64,000 bases of DNA from Lytechinus pictus (taxonomy: Eukaryota): positions 8,434,001 through 8,498,000 of the forward strand of contig NC_087251.1 in NCBI RefSeq assembly GCF_037042905.1. The letters are read 5' to 3'. The position numbers and the translations under genes were made by a program. The notes under the pieces were generated by a model. It made no database searches. It was not told where the DNA came from and saw only the letters and a list, made by a program, of their open reading frames with translations. This document shows, piece after piece, positions 9,926-59,781 of the stretch. The number at the start of each line of letters is the position of its first letter. The stretch's first letter is position 1.

Positions 9926-11921
9926 CACAAGGGAAAAGCGATTTTGTGTCTCGCCCACTTTAATATGAAAATAACCAGAAATATCGTGATATGCGAGGGC
10001 ACGCAACAGAATTGTATCGAAACTTCATTGTGAAATGACTGGGATGGAATAACACTTGTCATATGAGCCTTGCACATAAACTTTAATGTGGACCTGAAAA
10101 TGTCCTTTGACCTTACCATGTGACCTCTGACTGCAGCATAACATGCAGGTCCCCCAAGTCCATCTACCATCCAAGTTTGGTTGAAAAGTGACTTACGGTT
10201 GCGGAGTTAGGTGTCGTAAGAGGGTCTTGCATGTAAACTTTAACGTTGACCTAAAAATGACCTTTGACCTTATCATGTGACCTCCGACTGCAGCATAACA
10301 TACAGGTCCCCCCAAGTCCATCTACCATCCAAGTTTGGTTGAAAAGCGACTTACGGTTGCAGAGTTAGGTGTCATAAGAGAGTCTTGCATGTAAACTTTA
10401 ACGTTGACCTGAAAATGACCTTTGACCTTACCATGTGAACTCCGACTGCAGCATTTCGAATTGACTAAAGTGTGTAATTGGTTTAAAGCTAATAGACTCC
10501 TTATAAACAAAAAGAAGACCAATTTCATGATATTTTCTTTACATAACTTATCTGATATTTCAAACACATTGACTGATATTACCATTTCCATTGACTCCAT
10601 TCCTCTAAAGAGGGTAAATTTTGTAAATTTTCTTGGAATCTATATTGACTGTAATTTAAAATGGGATACCCATGTTAACAATGTTATTTGCAAAGTATCC
10701 AGATGTATTGGTATTTTATTTAAGCTTAAATACTATCTTTCAAATCATTCTTTGTTTTCATTATATAATGCTCTTATATTACCATACTTATCATATTGTG
10801 TCAGCGTTTGGGGTAATTGTACTAAGTTAAAAATAAACACCTTATTTAGATTACAAAAAAAAGCTTTGCGAATTTGCACCAACAGCCATTACCTTGCCCA
10901 TTCTGCTCCTCTCTTTATAAAACTCAAAACTTTGAATATAACTGATTTATATCAGTATCAAACAGCAGTGTTGGGTTACTTGTATTTTCACAATCTACTT
11001 CCATATAACATTTCCACAATGTTCTCTGCAAATCTTAACGTTCACAATTACAATACAAGAAATCGATATAATTTTCATCGTTGGAAAGTTTTATTTATGT
11101 ATGAAGAAAAATGTCCTCGATGTAGTATACCAATCATTTGGAATTCATTACCAAATTATATTTCTCTTTGTAATAACCAAAACTCATTTAAAAAACATTT
11201 GAAAACATTCTTTTTATCAAAATACTGACATGTACATGTACCCCAAGTTGTGCATGTATTGTTATATATATTTTTTTTTTGTCGATGTTCCTCTGACACA
11301 TTTCATTTTTGTTTCTTTTTTTTTTGTAAACATGTCTTTCAGTAACACATAATATATTTTATTGTATAAGATATAGATATAAGGGAACTTATTTTACAGG
11401 ACCACATGGCCTTATTTTAGTTTCCCTTTTTTTCATTTTCAAATGATTTAGCATGTATTACCCTTTCTTGTTTTTATTGAAAGGCATTCTGTATTAACTG
11501 TTTATATGTATTTTACTTTTATGAATGTATATTATTGCATGTATTTAATTTGTATTGTAATGAACTGTTTTTATATGATTATGGAAAATAAATGATCAAA
11601 CAAACAAACAAACAATAACATGCAGGTCCCCTAAGTCCATCTACCATCCAAGTTTGGTTGAAAAGCGACTTACGGTTGCGGAGTTAGGTGTCATAAGAGA
11701 GTCTTGCATGTAAACTTTAACGTTGACCTGAAAATGACCTTTGACCTTACCATGTGACCTCTGACTGCAGCATAACATGCAGGTCCCCCAAGTCCATCTA
11801 CCATCCAAGTTTGGTTGAAAAGCGACTTACGGTTGTGGAGTTATGTGTCATTATTTTTGTGACGGACGGACGACATTTGGATCCCTAAGTCTCGCCTTCA
11901 CCTCTGGTGGGCGAGACAAAA
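9926..11921 (+). mobile_element. Second pearl/HINE-like copy (about four 157-bp units) interrupted by a LINE fragment
   Basis: Same 5' end (gggaaaagcgattttgtgtctcgcccac) and 3' end (gacggacggacgac...gtctcgccttcacctctggtgggcgagacaaa). A unit breaks at 10454 (..ctgcagcat) and resumes at ~11615 (ataacatgcagg). Confidence 0.85.
10455..11614 (+). mobile_element. 5'-truncated non-LTR retrotransposon (CR1/L2 group, Crack/Daphne-like): RT C-terminus, 3'UTR and (CAAA)n tail
   Basis: Open frame to 11228 with WFKANRLLIN.KKT, FLGIYID.NLKW..H, LYNALILPYLSYC..VWG and IWNSLP; AATAAA then (CAAA)4 at ~11597-11614; no real TSD. Confidence 0.9.
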
Positions 11922-48058: not shown

Positions 48059-49499
48059 CAGGCCTCTCGATTAACTTTAATTTTTGGAAGTCAGCCGGGC
48101 ACCCTGGACTGAACTTTAGGTGGTCAAATGGCAGTTTAGGTGGTCATCACATGCAGATTGAAAATATTGTATCATGACAAATTGTAAAGTGTATCAACTC
48201 TGTATGTGTAATTTAAGTTTGCTGCGAAACACTACCGGTACATTACTGGTGGAACCTTTCTGTGGATTAAAAAGGACAAACTCAAGCCTTTGTTTCAAAG
48301 GAGATAAAAAAAAATTACTCATGATCCTTTTCTCTTTCTCTCTTTTTCTCTGTCCATGTTCTCTCTCTCCCTCTGTGTGTAACTGTCTCTCTCTGTCCCT
48401 GTCCCTTTCTCTCTGTCACTCTCTAAGGACTTAAGGTAAACTCTGAGTCTCTGTGCTTAATTTGTTTTCTTTTAATGCATGATATCCTGTACTCATAGTT
48501 AGTTTTTGGATATCATATTAGTATTTTAATTTTGCATTGTGTAATTATGTAATTATTTATGATGTTTATGTAATGTTTATATTTGTAAAAGATTCCACAA
48601 TTCAGCCTCTGGCTGCGAAAAAATTTATAGCAACTTTTTATGAAATGGGCCCCAGAAGTATACATTACAGAAAGAGTGGGAACAAAACCACAAGTGGCTT
48701 GGATGAGGCAAAACATAAACAAGTGATCATGTCGTTGTCCATTCCCCAACTCACAAAATGTGTCCTTGATCACCAAATTACACACAACAAGCTCACCACA
48801 CGTTGAATTTGATACTATAATGAAATGACTTAACTTTATTCAAGTTCAATGGGCCGAGTCGGCCGTGTCGAAAACATTCACATGCAAACAACACGGTCGT
48901 GTGTTGCTGCCCTCTGCGTTTCAAGATGTAACAGCACGATAATCCGGTCTTGAAATTCAAAATGGCGGATAGGCTAAAGTCGTTGACTGGTCGAAACGAT
49001 GTCCAAAAACCCCAAAAATGATCAATAAAAATTAATTCAACAAAAAAATGATGCTAAAATAATGTGAAAGGTAAGGATGTATCTATGTCAAATGTGTTTT
49101 TCAAAATATTTTGTGTACCCGCATAGATCCGATTAGAGCGGATTCTACTGCGTTGTTGGTACAGTGGCCGATACAAATTTTGACCAGTGCGAGTGATATA
49201 TTGCTACTGAATGGTAAACAGAATTGCCAATTTTCCGTGTACACAAAGTCTATGGGGGAAACAGAATTTCCGTTTTCTGGCATGCTGAAATGGAATTTAC
49301 GATTTTCTGAAACGGGAAAGGCAATTTTTTGAAACGGAAAATCACTGTCCCTACAATTCGTTTTAGACCTTCTCATTTTCGGTTTTCTACATTTATTTTT
49401 TCTGGTGGTCAGCCCGGGCACTATTACCTGACTTTTAGGGTGCCCGACGGAGCCTTAGGCGGTCAATTGACCCCGGACCGCCACCAATTTCGAGCCCTG
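48059..49499. mobile_element. Degenerate CAG..CTG element with a 5-bp TSD, containing a partial reversed copy of the 58974 family
   Basis: Right end aatttcgagccctg, left end caggcctctcgatt (degenerate); agtaa at 48054-58 and 49500-04; gtcagcc(c)gggcac near both ends. Confidence 0.55.
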
Positions 49500-50159: not shown

Positions 50160-53100
50160 AATGCTGAGCGCCTAGAATGCAGCTAGCAGTACAAGCTACA
50201 GAACTGTAAACAAACGGTACAAACCGGCTTATGAATAAGAAGAAGAAATTTGAAACTGATAAGGCCCATGTGAGAGAAGTCAACCTTTTGAATACTCTCC
50301 TAATTTTGGCTTGTTTTAACTGGATCCCTACATTTGTGTTGGTTCATTTTTATACCAAGCCTTCTAATAAGTGTTGAGGATCTTGCAGGACAAGGATTGT
50401 GCTTTCATATGTGTTATTTCGGGAGAACCAGCAACTTTTTGTTTTCTGACTCCTGTTCTCAAAGCTACATGGTAGCCATACTTGATTTTCACCATGCACA
50501 TTTACTTCACACTCCACAACTTATAGCCTGCATTCAACTTCAACTTTAAGAGGATTACCTGTGTGATTACCTCCGTGTGAACACAAACAATTCCACTCAC
50601 GGTCATTGTTATCTCTTTTTCACAATGGAGTGGTTTAAGTGTCTTCCTTTTGTCATCCTGACTTTATCTGTGTGTACTAGACTACAGGATGATCATGTAA
50701 CTCACTACTCTTGTTTTATGCATAACTCCAGTACCTTCGACAACATTAATGTGACCAAGCACTTTCGATCTCGTATACCCTACTACAGTAACACCACAGC
50801 AACTTTTCAAGTTGCTTTACTGGTTTGTGGTGATATACAGTCAAACCCAGGCCCCCCAGTCAACAACGAAAGAGAACATTGTGTAAACTCACATAGGACA
50901 ATGTTAAACTGCCGACTGCTTAATGCTCGGAGTTTGGGTAACAAACTGCAGGAATTACAAGTCTTGGCTAAAACTGAAAACTTGGATACAATTTGCATCA
51001 CCGAAACATGGTTAAACTCAGATTTTCATGATAGTGAGCTTTTAGACACGGATGCTTATCAAATCTATCGGAAAGATAGAAATCGAAATGGAGGTGGGGT
51101 ACTGTTTGCCTGTAAATCTGACTACCAGGCCACTCGACGGGAAGATTTTGAAATACCCAATTGTGAACTACTGTGGGTTCAAATTGCTATGCCAAATTCT
51201 CAAGGAAAATTGCTGTTTGGGGTATGCTATAGACCTCCATCTTCTAAGGTGCAATTTAATGAAGCTTTTGAAAACTCTCTCAATCGTGTTCTCCCATATA
51301 TTTCTTCCTACAAGGCAATTCTCTTATGTGGAGATTTTAATCTCCAGCTACCGATTACCACTTCTGAAGATGATGTACCTAATTTGAATAAAAACACAAG
51401 GGAAATAATAGACATAACCTCCTCACTTGGCATGTCTCAGTTGGTATCCTTTCCCACTCGTTCTGATTCCCTACTAGATCTTGTTTTCTGCAACGACCCC
51501 GACCTGATATCCAATATGAACCCTGGTCCACACATTGGCAATAGTGACCACGAAGCCGTTTGTTTCTCTATCAACTTTCAACATTCTAGGCAAACGCTTC
51601 CTCGTCTGTTTCATCAGTTTCACAAGGCCGACAAGGATGACTTTCAGAGGACAATAGAATGTATCCCATGGGATCTTCTTTTTGACAAAGATAATATTAA
51701 CGATACGTACGATAACTTTAAGTTACTGATCCACGCAGCTGTTAAAGATGTTGTTCCCATAGCAGTATCAAAAGGGAAACGCCGAACTCCCTGGATTACC
51801 CAAGACATTGTTAACCTCTCAAGAAAAAAGAAACGTGCGTACAGAAAAGTGAAGAGATGTAAATCTGCAAATGGAAATCCTACTGTAATCGAAAAAAACA
51901 AGAAACTCTGGACTAAATATCAAGAGATTTCTCGAGAAGTGAAGCGCACATGCAAATATTCCTACAATGACTATGTACACAACCTTGCCATCAATGCCAA
52001 CAATGATCCGAAACGGTTTTGGTCATTCGTTAAGGCGAAACGTCGAACTTCTAATGTTAACAACTTTGTTTTTAATGGTAACTCGTATGATTCTGCTGAT
52101 ATGATCGCAAAGGCGTTTAATGAGTTTTTCTGTAGCAATTTTTCTGATTGTACTGGACCTGTCGTCGATATTAATGACTTGACAAATAATTGTAATGCCC
52201 AACATGTTGGTATAACCCCTTTCTCACAAATTCAGATTGAAAATGCAGATGTTAAAAAATCAATTGAGAATCTGAAATCCTCCAAACCTCCTGGCCCAGA
52301 CGGTGTTTCCCCGGCATTTCTCAAACTTGCCGGTAACTCAGTTGTCCCCATTCTAACTCGCATTTTTAATCTCAGTTTAAATCTAGGCACTGTACCGAAT
52401 GATTGGAAAGCTGCTCATGTTATCCCTCTGCATAAGAGTGGCAAACGGTCTTCAATTAAAAATTACCGACCTATCTCACTCACTTCTGTACCATGTAAAC
52501 TCCTTGAAAAGATTATAGTGCGCAAACTAATTGATTTCTCTTTAGACCATAAAATCATCCCTGACACTCAACATGGGTTTCTACCTAAGCGGTCTTGTGC
52601 TACGCAAGCCGCGATTCTCTTTCATACTTGGGCAAAAACTTTAGATCGCACCTCACCGCCGAGAGTAGATGCAATATTTCTAGACTGGTCGAAAGCGTTC
52701 GATAAAGTGAGTCATTCGGTACTTATTTGTAAACTACATAGTTTTGGGGTATGTCAGAATGCTTTGAAATGGATCTGTTCTTTTCTTACAAACCGGGTCC
52801 AGCGTGTTCTGTTCCAAGGTAGTCAGTCGGATTGGAGTTCTGTAACCTCTGGAGTCCCCCAGGGGAGTGTCATTGGGCCTATTCTTTTTGATTTGTTTAC
52901 TGCAGACCTACCCAACTTAATTTCTGCAGGTACTTGCTTGCCCCAATATGCTGACGACACAGTGCTGTATCGTACAATATGTACCCAGAATGACACTGAA
53001 GTTCTCCAATCTGACCTTGACTCCATAATCCTCTGGTGCAATAATAATTCCATGGAACTGAATGCGTTGAAATGTAAGATAATGCACATCACTAGATCTC

Positions 53101-54725
53101 GAAAGGTTGTTACAGTTCAATACTTTGCTGGTAACCATACTCTCGATGTTGTTGATTCTTACAAATACCTTGGCTTGGTCTTTTCGCATGATTTGACTTG
53201 GTCAAAGCATGTGAATCTTGTTGTATCCAAATGTTCCAAACTGTCAGGATTCATCCGCAGGATCGTGAATTCACGAAATCCTTTCATTTTGAAACGTTTG
53301 TTCTGTTCACTTTGTCGACCTATAATTGAATACGGTATACCAGTCTGGCTACCCCATCAAAAAAACCACATATCCTCTCTTGAAGCAGTTCAACGTCGAT
53401 TCACACGTTTCTGCTTTCCTTATGATCGGGCAAATTCACTATCTTATGATGAAAGATTACACAGCTTAGAACTCCCACCATTGTATAACAGACTGGTCTA
53501 CCTATCTACCGCCTTTGTTGTAAAATCGTTGTTTAGAACTTACGACATACCTACTCATATCTTACCCAGGCCAAGAACTCGGAACTCTCACAAGTTACTC
53601 TTCATCCATGAATTCACACGATGTAATGCCCTGAAATTTTCTTGTTTCTTTTCTTTCCCCAGATTCTGGGAAGCTATCCCTTCAGAGATCAGAGATCTTT
53701 GCCTTGGTGTATCTGTGACTCCTTTCCTTAATGCTCTACGTGAACACTTATTCTCCATGCCTCCAATTGAAAATGCGTTTTAATGAGACATGCAGAGTAT
53801 TGTTTTCGTCTTGTCTCCTTTTAGACCTCTAATTTCTCTCTCTTTCCCCTTCTTCATTCGTCTTACTTTTCTCTGTTTTCTCACTCTGTGCAGGCTAAAT
53901 GGCCATGTATTTAGCCTTATATTCTTAGCTTAAATATTGTGCCCTTTTTTATGCATTTTGTTAATTACCGTACTGTTATGCAGTTATTTGCTCTTGTACT
54001 GTTCATAATGTTTATTCCTGTATGTTAGGTTATCAACTGTATTCATGGTAGTAGAATTTGCATTTTTGTATGTCATGCTTCGTCTCTTTTATTGCCTCTC
54101 TCTCTTTCTTTTCATTCTACCCCAGTTCTCTAAACTCTTTGTTCCCCATCCTCCTTCCCCTCCTCTTCTTTCTCTTCCTCTTCTTCTTTTCGCTCTTCTT
54201 CTCTCTCCCTCCCCACTTTTATCTCTTTCTCTCTCTCTGAGTATTGTATACATGCATATGACAATTATTTTGATACTATATTTTACTGTTGTGTTACTTT
54301 GTAGCATGATCATTGTTGTCACGTTCGACTATATTGCTTATTCTCTGCTTATGTAACATTGAAGTTCTCACAATATATGCAACTCCATCTCCATAGGCTT
54401 GACTATCTGATAATAACATAAAGTTGTTTATTTAAATACGTTAACACTTCATATTGACTGGATATTATAATTGCACATGGAAACAAACACTCTTTATTAT
54501 TAAGTTCTTTGTTTTATTAAGTAATGCATCTAAACATATATTGCCATTTTATCTGATTTTATTTTGTATATTTGTAAACCCCGACTAGTGAGGAGAGCTT
54601 CATAACAGAAACTAGTTTTTCTTTTAGTCATCCTCAGGCACTAGTCGGTGGTAATTTATTCCTCTTGTATATATTCTTATTGTCTTTTGCCTGGAAATAA
54701 AATAAATAAAAAATAAAATAAAAAA
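50160..54725 (+). mobile_element. Apparently intact single-ORF CR1-type non-LTR retrotransposon (5' boundary uncertain)
   Basis: Uninterrupted APE+RT ORF, ~900-bp 3'UTR with CT-rich tracts, and an (AAAT/AAAAT)n tail at ~54695-54725. No ORF1 or TSD found. Confidence 0.88.
50625..53783 (+). CDS. LINE polyprotein: hydrophobic leader, 2A-like peptide, APE endonuclease and reverse transcriptase (1052 aa from the first ATG)
   Basis: acaATGG start. APE motifs LNARSL, ITETWL, GGGV, YRPP, GDFN, LDL and SDH. RT motifs YRPISLTS, QHGF, FLDWSKAFDKV, SGVPQGS, YADD and YKYLG. CR1-like EAVQRRFTR; LLVCGDIQSNPGP near the N-terminus. Confidence 0.95.
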   Translation: MEWFKCLPFVILTLSVCTRLQDDHVTHYSCFMHNSSTFDNINVTKHFRSRIPYYSNTTATFQVALLVCGDIQSNPGPPVNNEREHCVNSHRTMLNCRLLNARSLGNKLQELQVLAKTENLDTICITETWLNSDFHDSELLDTDAYQIYRKDRNRNGGGVLFACKSDYQATRREDFEIPNCELLWVQIAMPNSQGKLLFGVCYRPPSSKVQFNEAFENSLNRVLPYISSYKAILLCGDFNLQLPITTSEDDVPNLNKNTREIIDITSSLGMSQLVSFPTRSDSLLDLVFCNDPDLISNMNPGPHIGNSDHEAVCFSINFQHSRQTLPRLFHQFHKADKDDFQRTIECIPWDLLFDKDNINDTYDNFKLLIHAAVKDVVPIAVSKGKRRTPWITQDIVNLSRKKKRAYRKVKRCKSANGNPTVIEKNKKLWTKYQEISREVKRTCKYSYNDYVHNLAINANNDPKRFWSFVKAKRRTSNVNNFVFNGNSYDSADMIAKAFNEFFCSNFSDCTGPVVDINDLTNNCNAQHVGITPFSQIQIENADVKKSIENLKSSKPPGPDGVSPAFLKLAGNSVVPILTRIFNLSLNLGTVPNDWKAAHVIPLHKSGKRSSIKNYRPISLTSVPCKLLEKIIVRKLIDFSLDHKIIPDTQHGFLPKRSCATQAAILFHTWAKTLDRTSPPRVDAIFLDWSKAFDKVSHSVLICKLHSFGVCQNALKWICSFLTNRVQRVLFQGSQSDWSSVTSGVPQGSVIGPILFDLFTADLPNLISAGTCLPQYADDTVLYRTICTQNDTEVLQSDLDSIILWCNNNSMELNALKCKIMHITRSRKVVTVQYFAGNHTLDVVDSYKYLGLVFSHDLTWSKHVNLVVSKCSKLSGFIRRIVNSRNPFILKRLFCSLCRPIIEYGIPVWLPHQKNHISSLEAVQRRFTRFCFPYDRANSLSYDERLHSLELPPLYNRLVYLSTAFVVKSLFRTYDIPTHILPRPRTRNSHKLLFIHEFTRCNALKFSCFFSFPRFWEAIPSEIRDLCLGVSVTPFLNALREHLFSMPPIENAF

Positions 54726-55274
54726 TATCGCACGCCCTCTTTAGGCAAAAATTGATATCTACGCTGATCGACGTGAAGATCAAGAAAAAAAATCGTTTAT
54801 TTATTTAAAAAAAACAGCAAAGAGAAGTCAACAAACGATCCATATGGTTCGGTAAGTGTCATAGCACAATTAGAAATCTTAGCTAGAATGTAATGTCATA
54901 GTTATTTGAGCAAAAAGGGTGTGAAAGAGTCGTGTGCACCAGGTGCATATCCTTCGCACGCGAGATGAATTGAACCCATTGGTGACGTAAACCTTGAATT
55001 ATTATGGAGTGCCATCATTGTCCTATTAGACATATTTGACTATTACCGCCAACTCGTTAGGCCTATTATCATTTTCTTTCTTTTCTACGACGTGCCCTAT
55101 AAAAATATTCCTCTCCTTCTTTCTTTGTGTTTTTTTTCTAATTATTATTATTATTATAAAGACTATCGTATCTTACAGGTTACCGCATGATCCCGTCCCT
55201 TCTTACGACCCCGTCCAGACATCGTCCTGTCTCTCAGGTGTAGACAGGGGGCTCCCTTTGGGATACTCTATATA

Positions 55275-57450: not shown

Positions 57451-58973
57451 TAGAAAACGTAGAATATATATTTTTAACATTTCTATAAACTTAAGATTTT
57501 CTTAAGAACTCCTTTTGGAAATAAGCTCTCGTTTTCATGGGTAATATTTAGTAATAATTCTCATTTCATACATATAAAAATATTGTTATTTTACCCGGGG
57601 TAGCCACTTCAGCTCTTATGAACTATACTCCCATCGGGCCCTGCGCATAACATACCTGCTTTCTGTGGGGGGGTTGGGGTTACGCCTTCTTTCATAAATC
57701 TAATTTTCATATATGGTATAGGCCTACATTCATTGTTTTATTTCAATATTTTTGATATTTCATGTGAAATTTTATAAAATGTCAATCAGAAGAAAATAAA
57801 ATTTAATTGAATACGATTGAAACTTCATTGAATACTTTATTCTTTACTCTTATTTTCCCTTCTTCATGGGCGGGAACCCAAGGGGGACGCGTCCCTCACT
57901 TTTTGGAAAGGGGGGCATAATATCAAATCCCCCTGTACTATTTGTGGTCTTTTATGATGGAGAACACTAAATCATTCAAAGTCGAATGTAGTCAAAGAGC
58001 TTAAATTTGCCCTATTTACTAAAAATGCAAAATTTCTCGCGTGGTCGCTCCGCTCCAGCGCTCCATCTAATCTTAGAATTAACCCTATCTAGGCCGGGGT
58101 ATTTTGGGAGGTTATATGGCCGGGGAGGGGCTACCTCCCATGCCCCTCCCCCCTTGAGATCTCGGCCGCGTGATCACGCCGAAAATTGGCACGCAGTATG
58201 CGTGGGACATAATTTACAAAATTGGGTGGTTATTTATTTCATGCAAATCGCTATAAGTAATTATGCTAATTCATGCGTAATTAGTATGCAAAATCATACT
58301 TTTCCCTCCAACTCCCATAATAAAGCTCAGAATGTTCTATTTTTTGGTATAAAACTCTTTGTGGTGATCATATCAAGTGTACGGTACATGAAAAAAATTG
58401 CGATATCAGATCAATGACTTTTAAATGTATTACAAATTTAATCATGAACCAATAAAAACATCCTTCGAATAAACTGGCATGAAGGGAGGGGCACATCCCA
58501 GAATCTTTGTGGAAGTGAGGTATTTTATACAAATATATACAGGCATACCCTCTACTTCTAGTTAAGTGTACGATGAGTTACTGATGACATTGACCGAATC
58601 AATGTCGTTAATGAAACACAGAGGCAAGTAAAGGCAGCAATATTAATTCCCACACACTTAACAATTTATTTCATCCGTTTATTATACTTATAGGGCACTG
58701 TAAATCACATCCTATAATAAATATTTCATTTATGAATTTTTGGCTCAGAATTGTTATGTTGCATCTTTCTCCAGTGGTTCTCTATTGCGCTTTCTGTCCT
58801 TTCATCTACGAACACACTGACCCCTCCTAAAAACTTCACCCCGGTATGCACTTGCCTCCCACTTGGTATTTAGGCATTTTATGTTAATTCAGATACTCAC
58901 ATGATAATGCATCTCAATGCATTTTTTCATGTTCCTGATGCTGCAGTCACATTTTCCCTACCGCGGCGTATGG

Positions 58974-59781
58974 AGGGACAGTGATTTTCCATTTCAAAAA
59001 ATTGCCTTTCCCGTTTCAGAAAATCTCAAATTCCGTTTCAGCTTGTCAGAAAACGGAAATTCCGTTTCTCCATAGACTTTGTGTACATAAAAAAATGGGA
59101 ATTCCGTTTACCCATTGAATAGCAATATCACACTCGCACTAGTCAAAACTTGTATCTGCCACTGTACCAGCAATGCAATAGAATCCGTTCTAATCGGATC
59201 TATGCGGGTACACAAAATATTTTGACAAACATATTTAACATAACTACATCCTCACCTTCCGAATTAATAGCATTATTTTACGATTAAATGAAATTTTATC
59301 GATAATTTGGGGGGTTTTTGGACATTGTTTCCAGCAGTCAACGAGTTTCGCCTACATGTATCCGCCATTTTGGATTTTAAGACTGTTACATCTTTGAATG
59401 TAGAGGGCAGCAACACATGACCGTGTTGTTGAAATCAAGTGTGTGCATGTGAATGTTTACGATAAGCCCAATACAACCCCGCCCAGGCTGGCGCCGGGTA
59501 CAGGCGGCGAGTGGTTCGATTGAGTGAGATGAAGTCGAGTGCAGTCACGATGTGTGAATTGTCATGATTGTATCGAAGTGAGATCGTGTTTTCTTGGGTT
59601 TTGTGGCCATTTAATATTCATATTTTGTTGAGATTTTGAGTAATTTCTATTGCTGTTCTGTGTATTTTGAGAAAAAATATGTTTTCTGTGATTTTCCGTT
59701 TGAAATGCCACTTTCCGTTTCAAAATGCCCTTTCCGTGATTTCCTAGCGTTTTCCGCGATCGCGGAAAATCACTGTCCCTA
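58974..59781. mobile_element. (T)AGGG..CCCTA MITE with a 7-bp TSD; family with three copies in the window
   Basis: agggacagtgattttcc / ggaaaatcactgtcccta; cgtatgg at 58967-73 and 59782-88. Homologous to ~6955-8280 and, reversed, to ~48790-49353. Confidence 0.85.

Follow-up and report, generated by a model that had tools for sequence, protein, structure and literature searches.

Introduction

2A-like (StopGo) ribosome-skipping sites have been described 40–80 amino acids (aa) into ORF2 of long interspersed nuclear elements (LINEs) that carry just one open reading frame (ORF; Odon et al. 2013, PMC3708506). A first-pass annotation of the DNA considered here had stated that such sequences occur in non-LTR (long terminal repeat) elements with an apurinic/apyrimidinic endonuclease (APE), sea-urchin elements included, and the same paper bears this out. 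The window analysed here, meaning the whole stretch of 64,000 nucleotides of Lytechinus pictus DNA (GCF_037042905.1, contig NC_087251.1, positions 8,434,001–8,498,000, forward strand), holds a full-length CR1-type LINE whose one ORF opens with a 76-residue leader. As in the elements of PMC3708506 and of Luke et al. (2013, PMC3894237), the motif lies near the ORF2 N-terminus (40–80 aa there, 76 here) and directly before the APE. Those elements, too, are mostly single-ORF, include the CR1 clade and sea urchins, and often carry a substitution at the E position of the motif. Neither the element nor its 2A-like site is unusual for this group; the unexpected part is a conserved signal-like start, held at a fixed spacing, together with a conserved block of 32 residues.

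Unlike the present analysis, PMC3708506 gives the upstream peptide no function, and its main text is free of the terms signal, hydrophobic, transmembrane, secret and membrane. Nor do the parts of its text compared here describe the 32-residue block (YYxN..TF), with the limit that its Figure 2A sequences and supplementary file 1 lay outside the comparison and may show it. Word searches in PMC3708506, PMC3894237, PMC13405545, PMC12338488 and PMC12846837 found neither signal-like starts nor the YYxN block, and the part of PMC8623073 available has no retrotransposon content. In the full-text literature (subscription journals, theses and Repbase Reports lying outside its scope), we found no report of either feature in such LINEs.

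Comparable arrangements are known from other systems. In the 2A-like signal sequences of sea-urchin NLR genes (Roulston et al. 2016, PMC4981915), signal and StopGo split a protein between cytosol and secretory pathway, as is proposed here, but there a single 26-aa peptide in host immune genes is both signal and 2A, whereas here the signal-like segment and the motif lie ~58 aa apart in a retrotransposon. Viral 2A/StopGo sequences (Li et al. 2026, PMC12846837) share the core G-D-[IV]-x-x-N-P-G/P, where the slash marks the skip site. XBP1u with its HR2 segment (PMC6624018) has a hydrophobic segment ~52 aa upstream of a tunnel-length element, and the signal recognition particle (SRP) brings its mRNA to the endoplasmic reticulum (ER); its pause is C-terminal and involves no skipping, and the likeness is an analogy, made without sequence comparison. 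In yeast, SRP-bound ribosomes at the ER translate the RNA of the retrotransposon Ty1 (Doh et al. 2014, PMC3945221), but Ty1 is an LTR element whose Gag enters the ER and returns, and 2A goes unmentioned in the abstract of that study.

A signal-like start shared across families

The first-pass annotation described the leader as signal-peptide-like, a description that gains most of its force from related elements. In the window copy a 5-residue n-region precedes the hydrophobic region (h-region; Table 1), which contains an uncharged run, F9–T18, and lies within the first 30 aa, as is characteristic of SRP signals. Small residues at S15/C17 or V16/T18 presumably fit the −3/−1 rule, as judged by eye and without a control. 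We scored a start as hydrophobic if its best 10-residue Kyte–Doolittle (KD) mean within the first 30 aa was at least 2.0, a proxy for a signal peptide. Of 29 non-redundant families, 7 were excluded as short or lacking a Met; among the remaining 22, which are Met-started and at least 60 aa long, 20 have a hydrophobic start, compared with 23.7% of 249 control ORFs (p=2.7e-9), and 14 beat within-leader shuffles at p<0.05. The case for a signal-like start rests on this conservation across families, because the window copy by itself is only moderately hydrophobic.

Two further sets avoid circular selection on hydrophobicity. When 20 of 305 genomic matches to the motif pattern were fetched on the motif alone, 7 proved short or without Met, and 12 of the 13 complete leaders begin hydrophobic. 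Selection by similarity of the reverse transcriptase (RT) gave 120 proteins, 48 of them at least 950 aa long (23 with the motif, 25 without). A hydrophobic segment upstream of the 2A helix and separate from it is present in all 17 motif-bearing proteins whose skip site lies at residue 70 or beyond, and in none of the 25 without a detected motif. The YYxN block is missing from 13 of these 17 relatives, so the signal-like start is wider than the subfamily of the window element. Judged from sequence, it is a real family trait, conserved far beyond the window family.

A conserved 32-residue block ends at the putative skip site

The annotation placed the G/P junction at 50852/50853, at the end of a 76-aa leader and in front of the APE. 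The codons of G76 (50850–50852) and P77 (50853–50855) agree with this placement, and the APE domain starts at aa 95. A DNA pattern for GD[IV]xxNPGP has 305 matches in the genome and its reversed counterpart has none, so the motif is not a product of chance.

Alignment of the window leader with 20 leaders of this genome, which are 27–40% identical to it, shows Y53, Y54, G69, D70, N74, P75, G76 and P77 to be invariant. As read from such alignments, the conserved unit is a block of 32 residues and not the octamer alone, a point missed at first pass. Its consensus is K-[YF]-x-[GK]-x-R-[IV]-x-Y-Y-x-N-[ST]-x-A-T-F-Q-x-x-L-L-x-x-G-D-[IV]-x-x-N-P-G/P. In a set of 89 leaders in fixed register, the conserved stretch opens at K(−32), takes in [YF], R, YY-x-N and TF, and closes at P(+1), with conservation gone upstream of −32. 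The pattern used to select this set dictated YY, N, F and the core; it left the columns K, [YF], R, [IV], A, T and both L free to vary.

Searched against 1.84 billion representatives, a profile built from the 20 leaders finds 1,083 protein clusters at E≤0.001. When 47 of 152 profile matches, mostly the longer ones, were scanned with Pfam, 25 had an endonuclease match and most of the others were short. Named relatives come from sea urchins, a brittle star, a sea star and a crinoid, and ten matches are possibly non-echinoderm. Residues 1–77 of the window protein have no Pfam match at E≤0.1. A word-index protein search with residues 1–130 returned nothing and one with the leader alignment returned 2 matches, as against the 1,083 from the unfiltered hidden Markov model; in the ESM Atlas no match to the leader scores 0.9 or above, and the best, at 0.84, is a lead only. 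The conserved Asn lies in an N-x-S/T sequon in 64 of 119 leaders. Given this fraction, and spacer sequons that are not enriched (see below), we rejected an obligatory glycosylation site at this position.

When two diverged subfamilies, L044 and L048, are compared, the nonsynonymous rate (dN) of the leader is 0.32 and its synonymous rate (dS) ~2.1, a dN/dS ratio of about 0.15; over the last 33 codons dN is 0.10 and dS is saturated. The leader is under purifying selection between these subfamilies. The dN/dS test that the annotation had suggested for genomic copies is uninformative among close ones, which differ from the window leader by 1 change (copy C15) and 3 changes (C20). The expectation that NPGP is kept among family copies holds for C15 and for the leader of C20 and fails for the older copy C8, which has lost D70 and N74 and also carries stops, i.e. 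is decayed.

Several related sequences deserve separate mention. A second shared module, found between the motif and the endonuclease in L044, L048, L055–L061, L063, L066, L067 and L070 and absent from the window element, consists of a Tyr..Leu segment, W..I..LGI and a basic RRxRTHRG-like stretch. Two proteins (P0004 and P0096) carry several canonical 2A-like motifs in tandem, and P0004 weakly resembles a Dam methyltransferase at a score that misses the Pfam cut-off. Some proteins of CR1-like LINEs (P0202, P0205, P0240, P0289 and others) are assigned to metagenome-assembled genomes of bacterial symbionts and most likely stem from host DNA binned with them. Twelve canonical GDVExNPGP matches clustered within ~2.1 Mb (G000:C4:23851473-25936155) possibly belong to one family of host genes that carry 2A-like sequences, NLRs for example, and not to LINEs.

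The residue at the E position

With Q72 at the E position, the window does not match the canonical core (D/G/C/N)(V/I)ExNPGP. The viral core has E almost invariantly (PMC12846837), whereas in the LINE family E is a minority residue: the 29 non-redundant families have E in 10, N in 6, S in 4, Q in 3, H in 3, D in 2 and A in 1, and 140 motif-bearing sequences among the 152 library matches have E in 37, N in 36, H in 19, Q in 18, S in 16, D in 11, A in 2 and K in 1. In the LINE leaders the core is preceded by a short hydrophobic stretch ending in (A/S/C)G, which resembles the L-rich viral motifs 2 and 6. LINE conservation extends to −32 and includes YYxN, which is not among the upstream motifs named in the section of PMC12846837 compared here.

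The suggestion that the E-to-Q change acts as a tuning switch is not supported by these comparisons. Besides E being the minority residue, a Q-bearing sea-urchin peptide, STR-69, is active and was not improved by changing Q to E (PMC3708506). The library of PMC13405545, whose file 3 lists 20-mers expressed in human cells and assigned to classes by a support vector machine that re-called 86% of its training set, includes E-restored variants; of nine family-like pairs whose members are alike except for E at the key position, none shows skipping in its E form. We therefore rejected a special switch at this residue. Rows with GD[IV]QxNPGP skip in 6 of 19 cases, all with leucine-rich upstream parts. 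The window's own peptide is not among the rows examined from that work, and file 4 contains no YYxNS string.

Geometry of the leader

Among 114 leaders pre-filtered at KD≥2, the h-region has a median length of 13 aa and the leader one of 78 aa. The distance from the end of the h-region to G/P has a median of 58 aa (5–95% range, 52–71). Ribosome and translocon together hold 65–70 aa, of which 30–40 lie in the exit tunnel (PMC2978324), and the conserved block (−32 to +1) approximately matches the tunnel length. Signal and 2A are separate elements inside the 76-aa leader, not one peptide of ~26 aa. In the spacer between them, sequons are not significantly enriched (22 observed versus 16.1 in shuffles, p=0.077).

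In the AlphaFold models the N-terminus forms a helix, the leader is of low confidence, and the endonuclease is modelled with confidence from residue 91 on. Block means of the predicted local distance difference test (pLDDT) are 31–56 over residues 21–90, and the leader modelled alone has a predicted template modelling (pTM) score of 0.29. On these grounds we rejected the leader as a part of the endonuclease fold.

A proposed mechanism and its alternatives

We propose that the leader may have three parts, an SRP-type signal, a spacer and a pause/StopGo element of ribosome-tunnel length, and that SRP capture with partial, context-dependent skipping could ration cytosolic APE–RT and hold the mRNA at the ER. 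We put this reading a little short of an even chance. It builds on observed anatomy, conservation, purifying selection and absence of ORF1; from initiation onward we infer the steps. Translation would begin at 50625. With the ribosome at G76, the hydrophobic region would lie 58 residues from the P site, out of the tunnel, where SRP could bind it and the ribosome dock on the ER together with the LINE mRNA. If the G/P bond is skipped, the leader would enter the translocon and an APE–RT starting at Pro77 would be made in the cytosol beside its own mRNA; if not, the fusion would be drawn into the ER and lost to retrotransposition. What decides the split would be the entire block of 32 residues together with engagement of the translocon, and not whether E or Q is present. 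In an element that lacks ORF1, such a leader would limit the dose of active enzyme and may bring the ribonucleoprotein (RNP) to the ER or the nuclear envelope. An intact, young family would imply that some ORF2 protein (ORF2p) escapes the ER. Engagement of the translocon alters 2A efficiency and carries unskipped fusions into the ER (PMC2978324), and signal plus 2A partitions the products of sea-urchin NLR genes (PMC4981915); by analogy, the ER-routed fusion envisaged in the first-pass annotation has precedent.

Several observations weigh against this proposal. Hydrophobicity is only a proxy, and the window leader on its own, at KD 2.40, stands at about the 90th percentile of the control ORFs (within-leader shuffle p=0.045). 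The profile that retrieved the library leaders covers their hydrophobic part, so that these leaders are not independent, and many of the 25 motif-less RT-selected controls are predictions from an internal Met. As to selection, the informative pairs approach saturation in dS and the close ones differ too little, with an L021/L023 leader ratio of 1.16 on 9 changes. In three RNA runs, of each of which about 6% was scanned, reads are absent over 52714–53900, which includes the 3' half of the RT. Viral StopGo sites carry E almost exclusively at the key position (PMC12846837), and several CR1-clade peptides are weak or inactive in reticulocyte lysate (PMC3708506). A hand tally of the family-like rows in file 3 of PMC13405545 ([TS]F[QN] beginning within the first five residues, and GD[IV]xxNPGP as the ending; n=29) gives 26 non-skipping, 2 skipping and 1 fall-off, with reduced protein in 2 of the 26; adding five [TS]FR rows gives 27, 5 and 2 of 34. 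The window 20-mer has 2 leucines in positions −19 to −10, under the 3 or more tied to activity. The 20-mer of P0112 is identical to one non-skipping row, and that of P0140 is identical at 18 of 20 positions to one skipping row. These published data on the core alone lean against strong skipping. They do not rule out skipping in context, because the 20-mers omit positions −32 to −20 and the membrane.

The same data suit an XBP1u-like pause without a skip, in which the block only stalls the ribosome and SRP brings the mRNA to the ER. There, either Sec61 would fail to open productively or the segment would become an anchor whose C-terminus faces the cytosol, leaving full-length ORF2p on the cytosolic face. 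The 26 non-skipping 20-mers, the non-E residue in 103 of 140 library matches and the 58-aa spacing, close to the 52 aa of XBP1u, whose segment binds SRP without gating Sec61, would all agree with such a pause. Yet the NPG/P and G-D residues, invariant in 20 of 20 aligned leaders, are the StopGo signature, the assayed peptides stop short of the upstream part of the block, the near-identical counterpart of P0140 is classed as skipping, and an h-region that reaches 18 residues in only 8 of 114 leaders is short for an anchor. We consider this version unlikely. Self-restraint without ER targeting is another candidate: the motif would lower ORF2p by stalling, fall-off or low-level skipping, and the hydrophobic start would be a degradation signal for the released leader or the unskipped fusion. 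Down-regulation of ORF2p has been proposed (PMC3708506, PMC3894237), and 59% of ORF2p-linked peptides reduce protein abundance (PMC13405545), but the 'reduced' class takes up only 2 of the 29 family-like 20-mers, and such an attenuator leaves unexplained the fixed N-terminal position of the hydrophobic segment, its length of 11–17 aa and its spacing of at least 52 aa. This, too, seems improbable to us.

We give still less credence to the released leader being a functional secreted or membrane micro-protein that replaces ORF1, for example by packaging the RNP into vesicles. It takes the position of ORF1 (PMC3708506) and has conserved aromatic and basic residues in its C-terminal block; its spacer, however, is unconserved in sequence and length, it has no Pfam family, no Atlas match of at least 0.9 and no confident fold, and its conservation ends at about the tunnel length. 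Least probable is a vestige or chance product of AT-rich DNA without function. About a quarter of control ORFs reach KD 2.0, and the older C8 copy lacks D70 and N74, but C8 also has stops and hence is simply decayed, and the 305-to-0 excess of motif matches, the 1,083 clusters, the low dN at saturated dS and the conserved start context leave this reading largely refuted.

The element, its copies and its transcription

Features of the element are collected in Table 1. The description of a CR1-type single-ORF LINE free of internal stops stands: the motifs of its 1052-aa ORF (stop-to-stop frame 50550–53783) are intact, and Pfam places APE and then RT within one frame, as in the CR1 clade. In the RTclass1 file, the RT motifs of the window, as they stand and in one version with a single residue changed, matched only CR1-labelled or STR-28/32 entries, and STR-28 and STR-32 are CR1 elements (PMC3708506). 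In a tree without labelled references, the element groups with L043 at 94/93, slightly below the tool's threshold; P0154, P0158 and P0159 sit on long branches there and were left uninterpreted. L043 is presumably CR1-like at its C-terminus. From the motif look-ups and this tree, the CR1 assignment is likely.

The 5' end, at ~50268/50270, is the shared start of copies C15 and C8, and many copies stop at ~54720–54727. A DNA search of the genome (811.7 Mb) gave 55 matches from 40 scored candidates, mostly 5'-truncated and ending near 54725; two have full-length starts at 50268–50270. Such truncated copies with a common 3' end and a simple-repeat tail are a CR1-clade trait. Copy C15 is also intact, with 27 differences over ~4,454 bases (99.4% identity). 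The element is a young, full-length, single-ORF LINE that was recently active. Its host site is another dispersed repeat, three uninterrupted copies of which join window position 50238 directly to 54718; compared with these, the LINE junctions show no clear target-site duplication.

Table 1. Coordinates of the element and its parts in the window
Feature	Position	Strand	Remarks
Extra bases (29) at the 5' junction	50239..50267	.	Absent from the empty site and from two other full-length copies
Full-length single-ORF CR1-type LINE, ~4.46 kb	50268..54725	+	Ends set by other genomic copies
5' untranslated region (UTR), ~356 nt	50268..50624	+	Longest Met-started upstream ORF, 46 aa
Upstream ORF of 46 aa, in frame with main ORF	50409..50549	+	TAA 75 nt before main ATG; second ATG 50469
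Single ORF, 1052 aa	50625..53783	+	Endonuclease and RT motifs intact; start context ACAATGG
Signal-peptide-like hydrophobic region, C6–T18	50640..50678	+	KD 2.40; helix 3–19/23 in both models
Variable spacer R19–T44, sequons N34 and N42	50679..50756	+	No conserved sequence or fold
Conserved 32-residue block K45–G76, plus P77	50757..50855	+	From leader alignments
2A/StopGo-like core GDIQSNPG/P	50829..50855	+	Putative skip between 50852 and 50853; Q72 (50838–50840) replaces canonical E
APE-type endonuclease, aa 95–312	50907..51560	+	Pfam PF03372, PF14529; pLDDT mostly >90 at residues 91–320
Reverse transcriptase, aa 606–852	52440..53180	+	Pfam PF00078, E 2.8e-36
3' UTR	53784..54725	+	AAAT-type A-rich tail at its end

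As the annotation had stated, no ORF1 is visible: the ~356-nt 5' UTR, whose 5' end three copies share, holds no ORF longer than 46 aa, and we rejected a hidden ORF1 on this ground. The ATG at 50625 is the first of the ORF and not of the element, with earlier ones at 50409, 50469 and 50494, the last opening a 10-aa upstream ORF. All 21 leaders examined have 1–12 upstream ATGs within the 246–360 nt ahead of them; these ATGs and the upstream ORF could add translational control. Around the main ATG, positions −3 and +4 are occupied by A and G, and A at −3 recurs in 17 of the 21 leader starts looked at. The genome also harbours intact LINE families with two ORFs (L043/L045, in which the ORF1 and ORF2 frames overlap, and L042); these have neither a 2A-like motif nor a hydrophobic start.

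The three raw RNA runs gave 85, 55 and 15 LINE reads. Reads of two runs carry the 50966–51171 joint of a 5'-truncated copy with a 204-base deletion (L006/L008, G000:C20), one run also covering its 5' loose end; this copy seems to be transcribed and, judged by mate direction, probably in antisense. In one further run, taken as a guess for RNA, contigs cover 50284–53818 but may be DNA. The runs neither show nor exclude transcription of the intact element.

Elsewhere in the window, two inverted copies of a ~500-bp dispersed repeat (48861–49355 and 58964–59469; 80–91% alike, ~10 kb apart) flank the region, and a 269-codon open frame without a Pfam match lies at 10419–11228 (+).

Implications for ORF1-less LINEs

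The papers that found these 2A-like sites left open how ORF2p is controlled and positioned without ORF1, and what role the upstream peptide has. A wider, rather doubtful extension of our proposal is that, in marine invertebrates, CR1-type LINEs lacking ORF1 have a genuine signal peptide coupled to a hitherto unrecognised extended StopGo of 32 residues whose skipping depends on engagement of SRP or Sec61; the RNP would be assembled on the ER membrane instead of with ORF1p, and a secretory route would be optional. The leader also offers a reason why many LINE 2A-like peptides seem inactive as short pieces or in membrane-free lysates, which we propose is because the assays drop the upstream 12 conserved residues and the ER context. 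A signal peptide on an enzyme that acts in the nucleus is paradoxical, and would make skipping or escape from the translocon essential for transposition. The recurrence of the signal-like start across many related elements suggests that they may use the secretory machinery of the cell.

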